A stretch of DNA of 19,357 bases from Bacteriovoracaceae bacterium. Lineage in GTDB: Bacteria; Bdellovibrionota; Bacteriovoracia; Bacteriovoracales; Bacteriovoracaceae. Below are positions 3,133-17,648 of this stretch, piece by piece. The stretch lies in the NCBI GenBank assembly GCA_041586955.1, contig JBFGZE010000068.1:1-19357 (forward strand). The letters are read 5' to 3'. Within the stretch, counting starts at the first letter, position 1. Each line of letters begins with the position of its first letter. The position numbers were made by a program, and so were the translations under genes. The notes below the pieces were generated by a model that saw nothing but the letters and a program-made list of their open reading frames with translations, did no database searches and was not told the DNA's origin.

Positions 3133-4709
3133 TATTCTTTCCCAGCTAAACAAAGGCTTTTCACTTCTGCGGTGAGATGAAAAGGCTCATCTCCCCACGC
3201 CATACCATCAAAAGGAAACTCCAATTGGTTTTTCTTTGCGCTTGCAGCGGCAAAGGTTGTAACCTTATCAACTCCGCTTTTTTCCTCTAATTTTTGAGCA
3301 TACCTCCGCATTAGACTAATAAACTCTATTTTCACAAAGCGCATTTTACGGATGCTACTATCTAAAATCTTCTGCCTATTTTCCCAACGCTTGCGCAATT
3401 CAAATTGTTTTCTTTTTGCGGTCATACTCATCATGGTATTTAGATCCTGACGAGAAGTCAGCCAATGTTCTTGCACACCAATTGCGGGTACAGTCGCCTC
3501 AACACTGGCCTGAGCTAAACGATCCAATTGCTCTTTTTCGATCTTTTGACTTTTCATTCCCCGTAAAACGATATTGAGATAATAATCATACTCATTAATG
3601 AGTGCAGGAGATTCCTGCAGTCGATTTTTCCTGATTTGTGCGGCCCAATTCTTATTCACGCGAATATAAGAATCAAACGCCTTTTTCACATTTTGGAACT
3701 GGCACAGCTTTAAATGAGCAATGGAACTAACCAGATAAACTTCCGGTAAAAATTTATCGTCAAATAATTTTAAATCCAAAGAGGCCAACTCTCCTTTTAA
3801 ATGGGGCATATCGCCTTTTCTAAGAGATATCCATAACGCTTCAACTCGAGCTTGAAGAAATTGTTGAGATTTTTCTGGGATCAGTCGGTAATAATGTTCT
3901 GAGGCGTCCATCGCACCGGCCTGATAAAGTAGGCGAGCGAGGAGCATATAATAAGAGGATATTTTCTCCAAATCGTCCGAATTGTGTAATTTCGGTTCAT
4001 AAACTTGCTTTAATAATTTGGCCGCAGCGCCAAGCTTACGCTGACGAGCAAGATCCACCACAATGGTTTGCGCTAAGCGAAATCTTAAAGGGTCATCTTG
4101 TGCCAACTTTGGTAACCAATAAAGGGCCTCCTCACCTGTTCGCAGAGCAGACCATGACTGGGCAAGGATATTAAAACGATTATCATTTGTCCGTAAGCTT
4201 TTTAACTGCAGCTTCTGATCGGGCCCTATATGAATACCATTATTAATAAACCATAATGACGCATTTTTTGAAATAGTTTGATCTAAGGCAACACCTAGTT
4301 GAGATTTTAAAAAATTACTTTCGGCACTATGCCGTAACCAGGCATTAAAAAATGTTTGATTAAGATTTAATTTCCAATAGAGATAAAGACTTGCGGCCTC
4401 GACGACGCTTAGATAATTGCTTGGGGCCTTCTTTTTGATCACGCTAATAAGATGCGCTGCTTTTTCATATTTCTTATTAACAATAAGGTTCATCCACGAA
4501 TTAACTTCAAAATTGAGCTTACCGGCAGACTTCCAAGAACCGTATAATTGTACCAGGAAGGGGTCATCTAACTCTAATTGCTTATGAGACTTAAAACTTA
4601 TTTGTGTCGCTGTATTTCCATTTCCCGACTGCTCCAGTAAAAGATCCGCACCCGATTGAGCGTGAACTTGGAGGGGTAAAAAAAGGGCCAAAAGAAGAGT
4701 AGATTTCAT
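3132..4709 (-). CDS. Periplasmic TPR-like protein, GltC-like
   Basis: Signal peptide (VHA/Q), TPR-like helices (LLARLLYQAG..ASEHYYRLIP; ARVEALW), HLKLCQF, and C-terminal EFPFDGMAWGDE resembling the GltC WPFxGExWxDE tail; operon context. Confidence 0.75.
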   Translation of the reverse strand: MKSTLLLALFLPLQVHAQSGADLLLEQSGNGNTATQISFKSHKQLELDDPFLVQLYGSWKSAGKLNFEVNSWMNLIVNKKYEKAAHLISVIKKKAPSNYLSVVEAASLYLYWKLNLNQTFFNAWLRHSAESNFLKSQLGVALDQTISKNASLWFINNGIHIGPDQKLQLKSLRTNDNRFNILAQSWSALRTGEEALYWLPKLAQDDPLRFRLAQTIVVDLARQRKLGAAAKLLKQVYEPKLHNSDDLEKISSYYMLLARLLYQAGAMDASEHYYRLIPEKSQQFLQARVEALWISLRKGDMPHLKGELASLDLKLFDDKFLPEVYLVSSIAHLKLCQFQNVKKAFDSYIRVNKNWAAQIRKNRLQESPALINEYDYYLNIVLRGMKSQKIEKEQLDRLAQASVEATVPAIGVQEHWLTSRQDLNTMMSMTAKRKQFELRKRWENRQKILDSSIRKMRFVKIEFISLMRRYAQKLEEKSGVDKVTTFAAASAKKNQLEFPFDGMAWGDEPFHLTAEVKSLCLAGKE

Positions 4710-12718: not shown

Positions 12719-13432
12719 TTAATTTCTGCTAATTACCGCATCAGTATGATCAGTACCAGTGGCGATAAAAGGAGCATCCGTCTCCTCTTTTTCGTTTTCA
12801 CTATAAAATAAAAAGTCATGGTAAAGCTCTGAAGCACCTTCAGTCACTTCAGTGACAATTGTTTCGGTTCTATTTTGAAAAACCGCATAAGCTACAAGTG
12901 CTGGAATGGCAGCGACAAGACCAAAGGCGGTTGAGTTAAGAGCTTCTGAAATCCCCTGGGAGAGAAGATTAGCTCTTTCTACAGGACTAGCAGCAGCAAC
13001 TCCTGCAAATGAACTAATCAAACCCGTTACTGTTCCGAGTAATCCAAAAAGCGTTGCAACGTTACCAAACATTGCTAAAAATCCTGTTCTTTTATCTAAC
13101 GAACTAATTTCCTTTGATAATTGTTCATCCATTCTTGCTTGAAGAGCTTCATCGCCCGCACCAATGGCGCGCATTTTACATCCAACATTGGCGACACGGC
13201 CAAGGCCTGTTGTTCCTGCGGTCATTTGAATATAATCTTGGGCCCCTTTAAAATCGCCTTTGGCAATAAAGGTCAAAATAGTTTTGCGAAAATCCTTCGG
13301 GACATTTTTATATTTGGCATACAAAACAATCGTTCTTTCCACGATGAGACCAATCGTTAAAAGGCCAAAAGCTAAAATGAAATACATGAAAAATCCGCCG
13401 GCGCGAAATTGTTCGATTAAACTCATAGACAT
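12719..13432 (-). CDS. MotA/TolQ/ExbB proton-channel protein (AglR-like)
   Basis: Three TMs; ATLFGLLGTVTGLI and GISEALNSTAFGL signature motifs; SD AGGAGG at 13440-13435. Confidence 0.93.
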   Translation of the reverse strand: MSMSLIEQFRAGGFFMYFILAFGLLTIGLIVERTIVLYAKYKNVPKDFRKTILTFIAKGDFKGAQDYIQMTAGTTGLGRVANVGCKMRAIGAGDEALQARMDEQLSKEISSLDKRTGFLAMFGNVATLFGLLGTVTGLISSFAGVAAASPVERANLLSQGISEALNSTAFGLVAAIPALVAYAVFQNRTETIVTEVTEGASELYHDFLFYSENEKEETDAPFIATGTDHTDAVISRN

Positions 13433-13665
13433 AACCTCCTGTTGGTCCCTAACGTCCTGTTGCTTAAATGCCCGGATAAATTGGACACAAATGTTTTATT
13501 AATCATACCGTGAAAAAGGAACTTTATCCTCGAAATGAAGCCTAAATGTAAGGAATTATTACAACACCTAAAAGGTCAAGTAATAATTAAATGCCTTACC
13601 TTGAGCAAGGCTTGAGCATTAGACTGACCAAAATCATCTTCTAAAAAGAGCATTGAGCTAAACGA

Positions 13666-13998
13666 TCAGCCCTTGACGATAAAACCTTTCTCCAAAAGGT
13701 AAGGCCGGAGTTTTTCCCGCTGGTCCCCTTGAATTTCGATCTGATTGTTTTTAAAACTACCGCCTGTGCCACAAAATGATTTGAGTGCCTTGCTCAGCTT
13801 TTTAAAATAAGGAGGGTTATTAGGTAGATTGTGGATAATAGTAACGGCCTTGCCGCCTCGCCCTTTCTTTTCCATCTGTAACTTCAAAGTTGTCTTGCCG
13901 GGATCAATATCAATGTACTGAACTTCTTTCTTTTTTTTCTTAGCAAGGTTAACCCCACTACCATCTGAGCTATAAATTATATCATCGTCATTAACCAT
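13666..13998 (-). CDS. yciH: Translation initiation factor SUI1/eIF1 family protein YciH
   Basis: EKKGRGGKAVT, LSKALKSFCGTGGSFK and IEIQGDQRE motifs; SD AGGGGG. Confidence 0.93.
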   Translation of the reverse strand: MVNDDDIIYSSDGSGVNLAKKKKKEVQYIDIDPGKTTLKLQMEKKGRGGKAVTIIHNLPNNPPYFKKLSKALKSFCGTGGSFKNNQIEIQGDQREKLRPYLLEKGFIVKG

Positions 13999-14598
13999 TA
14001 CGCCCCCTAAACCTGATGTTATCTAATACCAATAATAAGGATGGCAAGAAAAAGATTCCGTCACATATCCGACAGAGAAACTGAAAGTGCAGAAAAGGTC
14101 AAAGTCCTTATTTAAAGTAATGAGCTTTCTTCATCTTCACGCAAGGGAGGTAAAAAATCATCGTAACGAACATAGTCGCTAATAAGGATATACAGGAGTT
14201 AAACTTACCTTTCAAAAAATGAGCAAAGAGTATTTTATCGTCCGCCCCCGCGCCTCACGCCAACGCACAGAGCCACAAGTAATGACCCAGACCCCTTTAA
14301 AAAGGTTGGGCCGAGTAGAGCTTTATCTCAAATCCACCGTGATCATCGATTTAATAATTAAAGAAGGTCCATTTTTGACATATTTTTTTCATTTAGCGCT
14401 AACACATATAATAAAGTGGCCCTCACCCGGTACAAAAACCGATTTTTATCATTTTTCTTCCAGCGCAACTCCAGCCTAATTACAGGGGCTTAATTATTGT
14501 CATTGACCTTTTATAATAAAGAATTTAAGAACACCGCATTATGTTTTAGGTTATTAATGGTCTATGCTCAAAAAATTTAGTACAAAGGAGGCTGAATT

Positions 14599-14628
14599 AT
14601 TAATCACACTCAATTTGGCAAAACTTAA
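14599..14628 (+). CDS. Putative 9-codon AUU-initiated leader ORF (MNHTQFGKT) coupled to the helicase
   Basis: AGGAGG at 14586-14591, 7 nt, ATT 14599, TAA 14626-14628 overlapping the helicase ATG (TAATG). In-frame TGA at 14593-14595 bounds the frame. Confidence 0.5.
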   Translation: MNHTQFGKT

Positions 14629-16643
14629 TGGATACAACCACCAGCTTTAAGGATTTCGGCTTAAAAGAAAATCTACTTCACTCCCTCACAACAAATGGTT
14701 TCGAAAATGCTTCTCCTATCCAGGAGATGACAATCCCCCCAATTCTTGAAGGCAAGGATATTTTTGCTCAGGCGGAAACCGGCAGTGGCAAGACAGGATC
14801 TTTCGCTATTCCTATTATCGAATTATTATTACGCAATGGAGATCTAGATAAGAAAGAATCAACACCATCACTTTATGTGGTCTTAAGCCCCACCAGAGAG
14901 CTAGCGCAACAAACACATAAAGTATTTAATCAATTTGGCCTTCCTCTTGGTTTACGCTCCAGTTGTATTATTGGTGGCGAGAGCATGGACAAACAGAAAG
15001 AATCATTGACCAAAGGCGCTCATGTATTGATCGCCACCCCCGGCCGTCTTAAAGACTTCATCCGTCAAAGAGTTATTGATCTCAGTCAATGCCGCGGAGT
15101 TGTTTTTGATGAGGCCGATCGCTTATTTGATATGGGCTTTAAAAAGGAAATTGAAGGTATTCTAGCGACAGTCCCCAAGACCCGCCAATTAATCATGGTT
15201 TCCGCGACAAGTAACCTCGACGTCCTAAATACCGCTTATAAATTTCACTCCGACCCTCTTGAACTCAAGTTGAACGAAGATAGCTTACTTGTTGACCATA
15301 TCGACCATAAAGTGGCAATGATTTCCCAAGAAGAAAAAATGCCGCTCTTAGTGAGCTTATTGCGCAAGCAAGAAAATGCTTACGCCATTGTCTTTTGCAA
15401 CACTCAATTACAAACCCATTTGGTCGCAGAATGGTTGCGTAAGATGGACTTTAAGGCCAAACCCATTTCTGGCCGAATGCCTCAAAATAAAAGAACCCGC
15501 TTGATGGAAGAATTCCGCAGCAAAGTTGTCACGATACTCGTCTGTACTGATGTTGCCGCTCGTGGCCTAGACATCAAAGATATTAATTTTGTTGTCAATT
15601 ATGACCTTCCTCAAGACGCCGTTAATTATGTTCACCGTATAGGACGAACTGGGCGTGCTGGAAAATCAGGCCAGGCCATTAGTTTCTGTGCCTATGAAGA
15701 TTGCGAGCATTTCGATGGAATTAATGAACTCATTCAGATTCCAATTCCCAAACTTCATTTAACAGATGAAGACTTCGCCACCAATATATGCAAAAAGCCT
15801 TATCTTGACTTTAAGACCCTTCAAGTTGTGGAGCGTGATAATAGAGATCGCAAACCCAATAATAAAAATAAGGATCGCCAAGCTAGTCGGGATAATAGAG
15901 AAAGAAAACCTAGAGATAATCAACGAACTCAACGTTCTGAAATAAAGAAAACACCACAACCAAGGACAACTGAAACTATGAAAGCTGTTCAAATGACATC
16001 CGACACTCCTAAAGTCGATAGACGCTTTTTTGAAATCACCAGTACTCAACAAGCGAAGGCCGAAGAATTGGCCATCCAACATTTTGGCCTAAAAGACTCC
16101 GGCCTATTAGGTGTTGAGATCTTAGAAAAGGGGAAAAAGAAGTTTATTTTCTTTGGCCCAAGAAAAAATAAATACCGTTATTTTGTTAAACCGATTTATA
16201 AGAGAATCTTAACACCATTTCTTATTGAGCTCGTCAAAAAATCTCAATTAAACCTTAATTTTAGAGTCTCTTTTAAGGAGCCCTATATCCGTGTTAGCTT
16301 CAGTGGACGTGATGAAGGTCTTCTCTTAAAAAATAACAATGAATTGCTCTACTCCTTTGAGCATCTCATGCGAAAATACCTTAACCAAACAATTCGCATC
16401 CCACAGGGTGTGAAGTTCTCGGTTCGCTGTTATAAAAATTCAAAAAAACAAGAAAAGGACTTAATGGAGCTGATCAACCAAACTAAATCAAAGGTTGAAC
16501 GCGATAATAAGGCCGTTCTCCTAAAACCTTTAACGGCAGCAGATCGTCGAATAGTTCACCAATTTATCAGTGAAGATCCCAAATTCAAAACCACCTCCAT
16601 CGGAGATGGCCGTTTAAAGCGCATTGAAGTGTCATTAAAATAA
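14628..16643 (+). CDS. DEAD-box RNA helicase fused to a C-terminal Jag/KhpB(EloR)-like module (Jag_N, degenerate KH, R3H)
   Basis: Q motif (FKDFGL..SPIQ), AETGSGKT, PTRELA, TPGRL, DEAD, SAT, TDVAARGLDI, HRIGRTGRAG. Then an R/N/D-rich linker, Jag_N-like VEILEKGKKKFIFFG, and R3H LKPLTAADRRIVHQFI..TTSIGDG. Confidence 0.92.
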   Translation: MDTTTSFKDFGLKENLLHSLTTNGFENASPIQEMTIPPILEGKDIFAQAETGSGKTGSFAIPIIELLLRNGDLDKKESTPSLYVVLSPTRELAQQTHKVFNQFGLPLGLRSSCIIGGESMDKQKESLTKGAHVLIATPGRLKDFIRQRVIDLSQCRGVVFDEADRLFDMGFKKEIEGILATVPKTRQLIMVSATSNLDVLNTAYKFHSDPLELKLNEDSLLVDHIDHKVAMISQEEKMPLLVSLLRKQENAYAIVFCNTQLQTHLVAEWLRKMDFKAKPISGRMPQNKRTRLMEEFRSKVVTILVCTDVAARGLDIKDINFVVNYDLPQDAVNYVHRIGRTGRAGKSGQAISFCAYEDCEHFDGINELIQIPIPKLHLTDEDFATNICKKPYLDFKTLQVVERDNRDRKPNNKNKDRQASRDNRERKPRDNQRTQRSEIKKTPQPRTTETMKAVQMTSDTPKVDRRFFEITSTQQAKAEELAIQHFGLKDSGLLGVEILEKGKKKFIFFGPRKNKYRYFVKPIYKRILTPFLIELVKKSQLNLNFRVSFKEPYIRVSFSGRDEGLLLKNNNELLYSFEHLMRKYLNQTIRIPQGVKFSVRCYKNSKKQEKDLMELINQTKSKVERDNKAVLLKPLTAADRRIVHQFISEDPKFKTTSIGDGRLKRIEVSLK

Positions 16644-16650
16644 AGTCATC

Positions 16651-16682
16651 AAAAAAGGGCCATTTATTTGGCCCTTTTTTTT
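16651..16682. terminator. Bidirectional intrinsic terminator
   Basis: AAAAAAGGGCCA-TTTATT-TGGCCCTTTTTTTT between convergent genes. Confidence 0.9.
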
Positions 16683-16788
16683 GTATCAAGGATAGTCGCT
16701 CAAATGAAATATGCTTTTATTAAGTGAAATTATCTAATGTCAGGCTTTTGGCCCAAGATGTCGAAAAATATGAAGAGCACCGTAATGG

Positions 16789-16995
16789 TTATTTCTTTTC
16801 AATTAATAATGATTGAACCTTTTTAAGAAGACTTTGACAGGCATCTGCATCGAGACCGAAAAGCATATGACTTTTTTGTAACTCCTTAGCATTATCACCT
16901 TTTTCAGCAAAGGAGCGGATTCTATTATTGAGATTATTTCTTAACGTTCTCAATTTCTTAGGTGTCCAATCTTTTAAATCACTGAAATCTTTCAT
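16789..16995 (-). CDS. Small helical hypothetical protein (68 aa)
   Basis: SD AAGGA, protein-like composition (WTPKKLRTLRNNLNNRI), converges on the terminator. Confidence 0.75.
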   Translation of the reverse strand: MKDFSDLKDWTPKKLRTLRNNLNNRIRSFAEKGDNAKELQKSHMLFGLDADACQSLLKKVQSLLIEKK

Positions 16996-17016
16996 TCTAA
17001 TTCCTTATTTTATTGT

Positions 17017-17040
17017 AAAAAAGAGACTTTCGTCTCTCTC
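17017..17040 (-). terminator. Intrinsic terminator with GAAA tetraloop
   Basis: Minus strand GAGAGAGAC-GAAA-GTCTCTTTTTT, ~21 nt upstream of the 68-aa gene start. Confidence 0.7.
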
Positions 17041-17145
17041 ATTTATTAATTGAAAAAATACTGATCATTTCACCTTAAGTTCGCGAAGGGAAGAACCGCC
17101 ATAACTTTTAAATGTTAAGCACTTCTCCTCGCTTGAGCTTAGGGC
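17017..17145 (-). ncRNA. Candidate ~130-nt sRNA or attenuated leader
   Basis: Bounded by a TTGCCA-N18-TATGAT promoter and the GAAA terminator; the 5' ~75 nt form a long imperfect hairpin. No family recognised. Confidence 0.45.
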
Positions 17146-17151
17146 GGATTT

Positions 17152-17181
17152 ATCATATGGCCTAGCAACACGCAATGGCAA
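17152..17181 (-). promoter_or_regulatory. Putative sigma70 promoter
   Basis: TTGCCA (17181-17176)-N18-TATGAT (17157-17152); predicted +1 G near 17145. Confidence 0.55.
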
Positions 17182-17270
17182 AGGTTTATGAAGAGATTAC
17201 AAATACTTAAGTGGTGTATTTTTAATACAATAAAAATGACAAAGCCACTCCAAAACATTATAGATAAATC

Positions 17271-17648
17271 ATGGAAGAAAAATTTATTATTTTTGGTATA
17301 CAAAATGATGAACTTAACCAGAAGCTTCTTGGAATTCTAGAGGATGCTGAGGTCAATTTCGAGTTCCGAGATTATAGGAACTTCCCGCCCACTCCTCAAC
17401 AATTAAGCCGCTGGGCAGAATTTGAGGGCGAAGACTTTCCTATTAACGGGAGAAGTTCTTTTTTTAAAAAAAATAAAAAACATTTTATTAAACTTGATGA
17501 CGCTGAAAAATACCAATGGCTCAGTAAAAATTATCACGCGATCCTAAAACCAATTATTGAGGATGATAGTGAAAATGTTCTCTCCATTGGCGGACGGCCA
17601 GAACGCCTAGCGGTTCAAGTCTTCAACCTTGAAAAAGATTTATTTTAA
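17271..17648 (+). CDS. ArsC/Spx/YffB-family thioredoxin-fold protein lacking the catalytic Cys
   Basis: IFGIQND...FEFRDYRNFPPTPQQLSRW...INGRSSFFKK...AILKPII aligns by eye to YffB-type YGIxNC...F.DYR...N.R...IKRP. Confidence 0.75.
   Translation: MEEKFIIFGIQNDELNQKLLGILEDAEVNFEFRDYRNFPPTPQQLSRWAEFEGEDFPINGRSSFFKKNKKHFIKLDDAEKYQWLSKNYHAILKPIIEDDSENVLSIGGRPERLAVQVFNLEKDLF

Follow-up and report, generated by a model that had tools for sequence, protein, structure and literature searches.

Start codons of the AUU type that are read out by initiation factor 3 (IF3) are textbook knowledge for infC, and to our knowledge very few other genes are known to carry them. Several published observations bear on such starts. 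An AUU codon is reported to yield 6-8 times less product than AUG, and UAAUG junctions without a Shine-Dalgarno sequence (SD) are reported to be translated by re-initiation in Escherichia coli reporters (PMC3592434). AUU complexes are described as rejected by IF3 (PMC9723500), 30S subunits with late assembly defects are said to initiate at non-canonical codons, an effect reversed by extra IF3 (PMC6868393), and a review describes raised IF3 as an inhibitor of leaderless translation, both in vitro and in vivo (PMC9031893). The subject here is the start region of a DEAD-box RNA helicase gene in a 19,357-nucleotide (nt) stretch of DNA from a Bacteriovoracaceae bacterium (positions 1 to 19,357 of contig JBFGZE010000068.1, assembly GCA_041586955.1; the whole stretch is called the window), together with the start regions of its orthologues. 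Judging from these regions, the helicase appears to be rarely started the standard way in Bacteriovoracaceae: some orthologues begin with AUU, AUC or AUA (AUH; ATH for ATT, ATC or ATA in the DNA) after a strong SD, others look leaderless, and in the window the helicase AUG overlaps the stop codon of a short leader open reading frame (ORF) that would start with AUU. The family-wide start pattern is a more valuable result than the leader ORF itself, which is a candidate, not an established regulator.

Start region of the helicase gene in the window

The helicase gene (14628..16643, forward strand) encodes a 671-amino-acid (aa) DEAD-box RNA helicase with a C-terminal KH/R3H (Jag/EloR-like) RNA-binding tail, as judged by Pfam and NCBIfam. 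The DEAD (8.9e-47, 159.4 bits) and Helicase_C (2e-31, 108.9 bits) matches exceed the Pfam thresholds, which places the protein among the DEAD-box RNA helicases. R3H also matches (8.3e-09), and the NCBIfam model Jag_EloR matches residues 477-666 (window 16056-16625) at 1.1e-17, under its cut-off. The DEAD-box core fused to a Jag/EloR-like KH-R3H module matches none of the named NCBIfam helicase equivalog models scanned (CshA, RhlE, DbpA, RhlB, SrmB, CsdA/DeaD): none reaches its curated cut-off, and the best score is that of CshA, with 358.5 bits against a cut-off of 646.

A perfect SD hexamer, AGGAGG, is read directly at 14586..14591 (forward strand), 36 nt 5' of the helicase ATG. It is followed by ATT at 14596-14598 (spacer 4) and again at 14599-14601 (spacer 7), and the two codons share one frame, that of a leader ORF (14596..14628, forward strand) with 9-10 sense codons. 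The codons after the second ATT are AAT CAC ACT CAA TTT GGC AAA ACT TAA, and the whole frame from 14596 translates as IINHTQFGKT before the stop. This TAA (14626-14628) overlaps the helicase ATG (14628-14630) by 1 nt in the sequence TAATG (14626..14630, forward strand), a -1 overlap of the kind found in translationally coupled genes. The AUU codon thus stands at proper spacing (4 or 7 nt) after a strong SD, as in infC-type starts. A TAA at 14601-14603 closes the helicase frame upstream, and an out-of-frame ATG ORF of 28 aa is present at 14564-14650. An earlier note on this DNA had read the AGGAGG, both ATT codons, the TAA at 14601-14603, the TAATG and the 28-aa ORF at these same positions; on re-reading all are correct, and its sequence observation is confirmed.

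The earlier note had also held that the helicase ATG lacks its own SD. The duplex energy of this ATG with the anti-SD bears this out: it is -1.5 kcal/mol, whereas the first starts in 2831 long ORFs of the window's genome have a median of -4.9 (a canonical anti-SD is assumed for all SD energies). The genome uses SDs: 50% of these first starts reach -5 or lower, and 14% of internal control ATGs do so. The -10-like TA box that would mark a leaderless mRNA is absent from the 4-9 nt before the helicase ATG. Having neither an SD nor an adjacent -10 box, the helicase AUG would therefore need another entry route.

The other DEAD-box paralogues of the same genome (contig C53, 4177-5262 and 6722-8026, C39, 1820-2923, and C77, 11471-12601, all on the minus strand, and C7, 23437-24531, on the plus strand) likewise have weak SDs, and two have TATA-like boxes a few nt 5' of the ATG by eye. 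Given these starts, non-standard initiation may extend beyond this one helicase.

Start types among helicase orthologues

An orthologue was found in 92 of the 237 family genomes, and of the 92 start regions obtained, 90 from 36 genera could be scored. Start offsets at 19 loci were set by hand, and because related species are not independent, counts are also given by genus. At the codon homologous to Met1, 27 of the 90 orthologues (14 of 36 genera) have an AUH codon preceded by a strong SD. The codons are ATT in 6, ATC in 17 and ATA in 4, with a median SD energy of -5.8 and a best value of -10.2. Between the upstream stop and the conserved N-terminus, 23 of the 27 lack any in-frame ATG, GTG or TTG, and in several this stop lies 0-9 nt before the ATH. 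The next canonical codon in the 14 AUH-start orthologues examined is codon 12-68; it falls past the conserved F of the Q-motif region in these 14 and past GSGKT in 5 of them, so the AUH start is obligatory for them. The spacing from SD to ATH is 4-6 nt in ten of the AUH-start orthologues (by eye), and the 4 or 7 nt of the window lie inside this range or 1 nt over it.

Canonical starts with an SD energy of -5 or lower are found in only 10 of the 90 orthologues (4 genera). A -10-like box (beginning with TA and with at least 4 of 6 consensus matches) ends 4-9 nt before the start in 40 of the 62 canonical-start orthologues, compared with 1 of the 27 AUH-start orthologues and 17% of 2903 genes in the window's genome. 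The full -35/-10 pattern, defined as a -35-like TT hexamer, a 16-19 nt spacer, a TA box and a 4-9 nt gap with a score of at least 8, is present in 16 of the 40 boxed orthologues (10 genera). None of the 27 AUH-start and none of the 10 SD-type orthologues has it; among 936 SD-less genes of the window's genome, the share is 9%. The genera aligned on the box share TTAGTA, TTAGTC, TTGGTC or TTGACT, 17-18 nt, TATAAN, 5-8 nt and ATG. From these sequence patterns, the boxed canonical-start orthologues look like genes with leaderless or nearly leaderless mRNAs. Twelve of the 90 orthologues, the window's gene included, have neither an SD nor a -10-like box. The motif TTTAGTA occurs in 14 of the 90 start regions at -18 to -114 nt, with no consistent position.

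A quick maximum-likelihood tree built from 40 full-length proteins unites 13 AUH rows in a single deep group that contains no ATG start, with weak support for the group (Shimodaira-Hasegawa-like approximate likelihood ratio test, SH-aLRT, 85). Locus L045, which has an ATT start (AGGAGG-N5-ATT), sits on a separate long and deep branch. AUH-start and canonical-start helicases coexist within the genus labels g11, g16 and g42, and two g11 members are far apart in the tree; together these suggest replacement of the gene or repeated change of start type. At locus L127 (genome G252), the codon homologous to Met1 is GTC, and from the upstream stop to the conserved N-terminus there is no in-frame ATG, GTG or TTG and no well-placed ATH.

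AUH starts are rare in the window's genome as a whole. A crude filter gives 20 matches at about 17 loci among 4004 long ORFs; it recovers infC, and most of the remaining matches are doubtful. Possible ATT starts with a good SD from this filter are those of a 530-aa ORF on contig C21 (minus strand, 25495) and a 704-aa ORF on C22 (minus strand, 10779). Nothing in the literature collection searched reports a DEAD-box helicase of these bacteria that is leaderless or has an AUH start.

infC and a possible link to IF3

Of 24 relatives, 20 start infC with ATT, ATC or ATA after an SD of about -10, and within Bacteriovoracaceae 15 of 16 genomes do so, the window's included. In the latter genome (locus L093, contig C21, match 3910-4119, minus strand) the start is ATC or ATT after GGAGG at about -10 kcal/mol, and the stretch before the conserved N-terminal domain has no canonical start. 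Since the window's genome and 19 further relatives have this AUH device on infC, discrimination of the IF3 type is plausibly active here. Published work on raised IF3 thus suggests that the AUH-plus-SD and the leaderless designs of the helicase are both of kinds that IF3 disfavours, and by analogy the SD, AUU leader ORF and overlapping SD-less AUG of the window would be a third design of this kind.

The earlier note had proposed that the window's leader senses initiation fidelity. By analogy the proposal gains from the AUH codon on the helicase ORF in 27 of 90 orthologues and from the same device on infC in 20 of 24 relatives, and it loses in that the leader ORF itself occurs in 1 of 90. The comparative sequence evidence suggests that the idea of an IF3-sensitive start has real backing at the level of the gene family.

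It is possible, although rather unlikely, that the KH/R3H-tailed helicase and infC make up a small IF3 regulon of Bacteriovoracaceae, with mRNAs built for initiation modes that IF3 disfavours. These modes would be AUU, AUC or AUA after a strong SD, a leaderless AUG or, in the window, a coupled AUU leader ORF. Helicase supply would then go up if 30S subunits exceeded IF3 in number or evaded it, for instance during a lag in ribosome assembly, and a feedback loop would be closed between ribosome maturation and an RNA-remodelling enzyme.

The leader ORF as a possible ribosome entry site

For the window itself, we tentatively favour a reading in which ribosomes enter at a functional leader ORF, specific to its lineage and sensitive to IF3, that is coupled to the helicase AUG. 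It would be this lineage's form of the non-standard, IF3-antagonised initiation seen in the helicase family. In its favour are the anatomy, the AUH starts of the orthologues and of infC, the published results on UAAUG re-initiation and on 30S assembly defects, and a resemblance between the SD-to-ATTAAT module and the start site of the ATT clade. We infer translation of the leader ORF, its coupling to the helicase and its dependence on IF3 alike from the arrangement described above. The AGGAGG would capture 30S subunits, and initiation at the AUU would be inefficient, near-cognate starts being rejected by IF3. The 9-10 codons would be translated up to termination at UAAUG, followed by re-initiation on the overlapping SD-less AUG, a route that would keep helicase synthesis low. 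Synthesis would increase under weak IF3 proofreading, whether IF3 is scarce relative to 30S subunits or immature 30S subunits escape it.

The results on chance, conservation and leader structure that follow weigh against this reading, as do some of those on promoters and on the origin of the leader. With the SD and the TAATG kept fixed and 100000 spacers between them shuffled or Markov-generated, 9-12% of these spacers have an ATH at 4-9 nt whose frame runs open to the TAA. Of the 1277 AGGAGG sites in the window's genome, 155 precede a long ORF with a canonical start, and 74 non-coding ones, that at 14586 among them, have ATH as the only start codon after them. In about 3 of these 74 orphan sites, counting the window's, the stop of the frame overlaps the start of a long ORF; the other leader frames start with ATC after AGGAGG on contig C2 (plus strand, 9088; 13 codons) and contig C40 (minus strand, reverse-strand coordinate 26254; 38 codons), and their stops overlap, as ATGA, the ATG of a 229-aa and a 325-aa ORF, respectively. 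The leader-ORF pattern by itself is not beyond chance for a genome of such size.

The arrangement is also confined to the window. An SD with a leader ORF that overlaps the main start is found in 1 of the 90 orthologues, that of the window's genome only. The earlier note had proposed aligning relatives for a conserved SD-N7-ATT...TAATG and had counted its absence there against its own idea, so by the note's own terms the result counts against this part of the proposal. The quick tree places the window's helicase and L035 as sisters (SH-aLRT 93); L035 has no SD and no leader ORF, and the sister lineage L035/L098 as a whole lacks the leader ORF. Relatives above about 62% protein identity were found neither in the genome collection (24 loci) nor in metagenome contigs (14 loci), and no genome of the same genus is among those compared, so that the comparison covers conservation beyond the closest range. 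As the assembly, which consists of 194 contigs at 39% G+C, did not yield the 16S rRNA 3' end, a canonical anti-SD was assumed. At locus L162 (genome G156), AGGAG, 7 nt and ATT TAG make up a one-codon start-stop frame 16-31 nt before the helicase GTG, which itself has no SD.

The main rival explanation is coincidence, in which the helicase AUG is used directly and the AGGAGG and ATT have no role in expression. Initiation would then take place on a 16-nt leader made from the promoter-like sequence TTAGTA-N15/16-TATTAAT, or on an unstructured A/U-rich leader. The conditional chance and the uniqueness of the arrangement among the 90 orthologues fit such a coincidence, as does the count of orphan AGGAGG sites, which is about that of a rough composition estimate. 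Starts that lack an SD are normal for this gene: among the 62 canonical-start orthologues, 52 have either an SD energy higher than -5 or a -10 box next to the start. Against it, a perfect 6-nt SD is well spaced from an AUH codon in a gene whose relatives use SD and AUH in 27 of 90 cases, and an AUG that is SD-less and not leaderless is a weak start by the genome's own standard. We regard coincidence as quite possible, if short of likely.

A further explanation is that the SD serves as a standby or decoy site, with the AUU rarely decoded and no need for termination and re-initiation. The SD would hold 30S subunits near the AUG and feed them to it, or would block the AUG, because complexes at 14599 and 14628 would have overlapping footprints. 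The unstructured leader, with an SD 36 nt away from an AUG that is accessible, would suit such a role, as would the reported rejection of AUU complexes by IF3 (PMC9723500). It would, on the other hand, turn the exact TAATG overlap and the open frame into irrelevant coincidences, and the other 89 orthologues have no comparable upstream SD; a standby or decoy role is improbable.

Candidate promoters and leader structure

A perfect TATAAT at 14512..14517 (forward strand) is a candidate -10 element, and if it is used the leader would be about 100 nt long, with the SD and the leader ORF inside the transcript. The pick of the promoter scan is TTGTCA-16-AAGAAT at 14497-14524 (9/12). The region has 2 promoter-like sites compared with 2.4 expected from shuffles, and thus no excess.

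The alternative candidate promoter, read by eye at 14577..14604 on the forward strand, consists of TTAGTA at 14577, a spacer of 15-16 nt and TATTAA or ATTAAT within TATTAAT at 14598-14604. As a promoter it would place the AGGAGG in the spacer and the ATT in the -10 element, with transcription starting at about 14611 and the SD untranscribed. Direct use of the helicase AUG gains from the TTAGTA or TTAGTC that leaderless-type orthologues employ as their -35-like element. It loses from the spacer, which is 15-16 nt here and 17-18 nt in the relatives, and from the -10 candidates, each of which misses one of the two most conserved positions, which is why the scan is silent on this promoter.

The leader at 14530-14680 is less structured than its shuffles (z +1.6), 193 of 200 of which match or exceed its folding. 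The helicase AUG would therefore be accessible without an upstream ribosome, as direct use of this AUG would have it. A mechanism in which the AUG is buried and is opened by translation of the leader is rejected, because the leader is less folded than its shuffles. Attenuation by a leader peptide does not fit either, since the ORFs overlap and the leader folds poorly. Rfam gives no match at E <= 1 in 13000-17500 except two below threshold, both treated as chance: a SraG-like match at 16652-16743 on the minus strand (E 0.12) and a snoRNA model (E 0.3).

Origin of the leader

The SD and ATT may be the relic of a former AUH start of the helicase that was displaced by an ATG 27-30 nt downstream, an origin that fits any functional reading of the leader. 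This origin and the yciH circuit considered below cut across the choice between a working leader ORF, a coincidence and a standby site, and the likelihood of each is judged separately. The AUH-plus-SD start is widespread and deep in the family, and it is found on the separate deep branch of L045 as well. The window's CAAAGGAGGC..ATTAAT resembles the CAAAAGAGGC..ATTAAT of the ATT clade (p about 0.01), with shuffling giving p 0.007-0.014, uncorrected and against related targets. The likeness is confined to the SD and ATTAAT, some likeness between any two SDs is expected, and the leader ORF's coding part has no counterpart: it is unlike the helicase's own N-terminus (p 0.54) and similar to none of 41 orthologue N-termini at p<0.05. 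The ancestral start state falls in a polytomy of the quick tree. With a resembling ATTAAT module and an unmatched coding part, a relic is therefore possible but, in our view, unlikely. On the same p values, a decayed tandem copy of the helicase N-terminus is rejected as the source of the leader ORF.

The divergent yciH gene and the intergenic region

The neighbour upstream of the helicase is yciH (13666..13998, minus strand), which encodes a SUI1/eIF1-like protein (Pfam SUI1 1.8e-16; NCBIfam YciH 1e-24, under its cut-off). The two genes are divergent and 630 nt apart. Between them lie an 86-aa ORF of uncertain status (14219..14479, forward strand; no Pfam or NCBIfam family) and, after it, a terminator-like hairpin at 14473-14490 from the promoter/terminator scan. 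The 86-aa ORF has a G+C-rich patch at about 14240-14300 amid the A+T-rich intergenic region, which is unique in the genome and among the orthologue loci.

The earlier note had joined yciH and the leader ORF in a circuit that senses initiation fidelity. In its favour, yciH is the upstream divergent gene here and adjoins the helicase in a second genome, G003, too. There it lies directly downstream and convergent (locus L003, 3473-3808, minus strand relative to the helicase), and this is the only other adjacency: of 42 distinct loci (51 with duplicates counted, searched with 0.5-1.5 kb flanks), 2 have yciH next to the helicase, in different orientations, so the two do not make up a conserved gene pair. 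The intervening ORF and hairpin also speak against a circuit. By its title, a 2015 study by Osterman et al. in RNA Biology reportedly deems E. coli YciH unlikely to act in initiation fidelity. Such a circuit thus appears very improbable.

Comparison with known systems

A second gene family that keeps AUU-type starts across 14 genera would make start-codon discrimination a wider regulatory channel, with leaderless or leader-ORF designs as the apparent alternatives to the AUH start. The helicase family offers a concrete, testable link from ribosome quality control to an RNA helicase. There is also a consequence for annotation: gene finders limited to ATG, GTG and TTG would truncate the 27 AUH-start orthologues, and in 5 of the 14 checked the truncation would pass the ATP-binding motif.

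Among described systems, infC autoregulation shares with the window a near-cognate AUH start after a strong SD. In infC the codon begins the regulated protein itself, whereas the AUU of the window begins a leader ORF of 9-10 codons, for which IF3 dependence is a prediction. The 27 AUH-start orthologues do carry the AUH codon on the helicase ORF itself. The pcnB gene (E. coli poly(A) polymerase I) is likewise described as encoding an enzyme of RNA metabolism that is kept low by an AUU start (PMC2939334, PMC5499595). That is a direct start with no leader ORF, and no alternation with leaderless forms in relatives is known for it. The ebpA gene of Enterococcus faecalis, whose expression is reported to be attenuated by a rare ATT start (PMC4447247), is an unrelated gene and also has a direct start.

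Coupling by termination and re-initiation at UAAUG or AUGA junctions, as described for E. coli (PMC3592434), involves the same -1 overlap and SD-less downstream cistron, whereas the window's upstream cistron is a tiny putative AUU-started ORF and not a full gene. Leaderless mRNAs resemble the 40 of 62 canonical-start orthologues with a -10-like box, whose leaderless status is assigned from sequence alone; the window's own helicase gene differs in having no such box. As in E. coli deaD/csdA, which is reported to be controlled post-transcriptionally through its long 5' leader (PMC7430678, bioRxiv 10.1101/2021.03.08.434349), a DEAD-box helicase gene would be regulated by way of its leader. The mechanisms described for deaD/csdA are mRNA stability and Rho-dependent termination, the abstracts mention no AUH start or leader ORF, and the window's helicase falls outside the DeaD equivalog (265 bits, cut-off 989).

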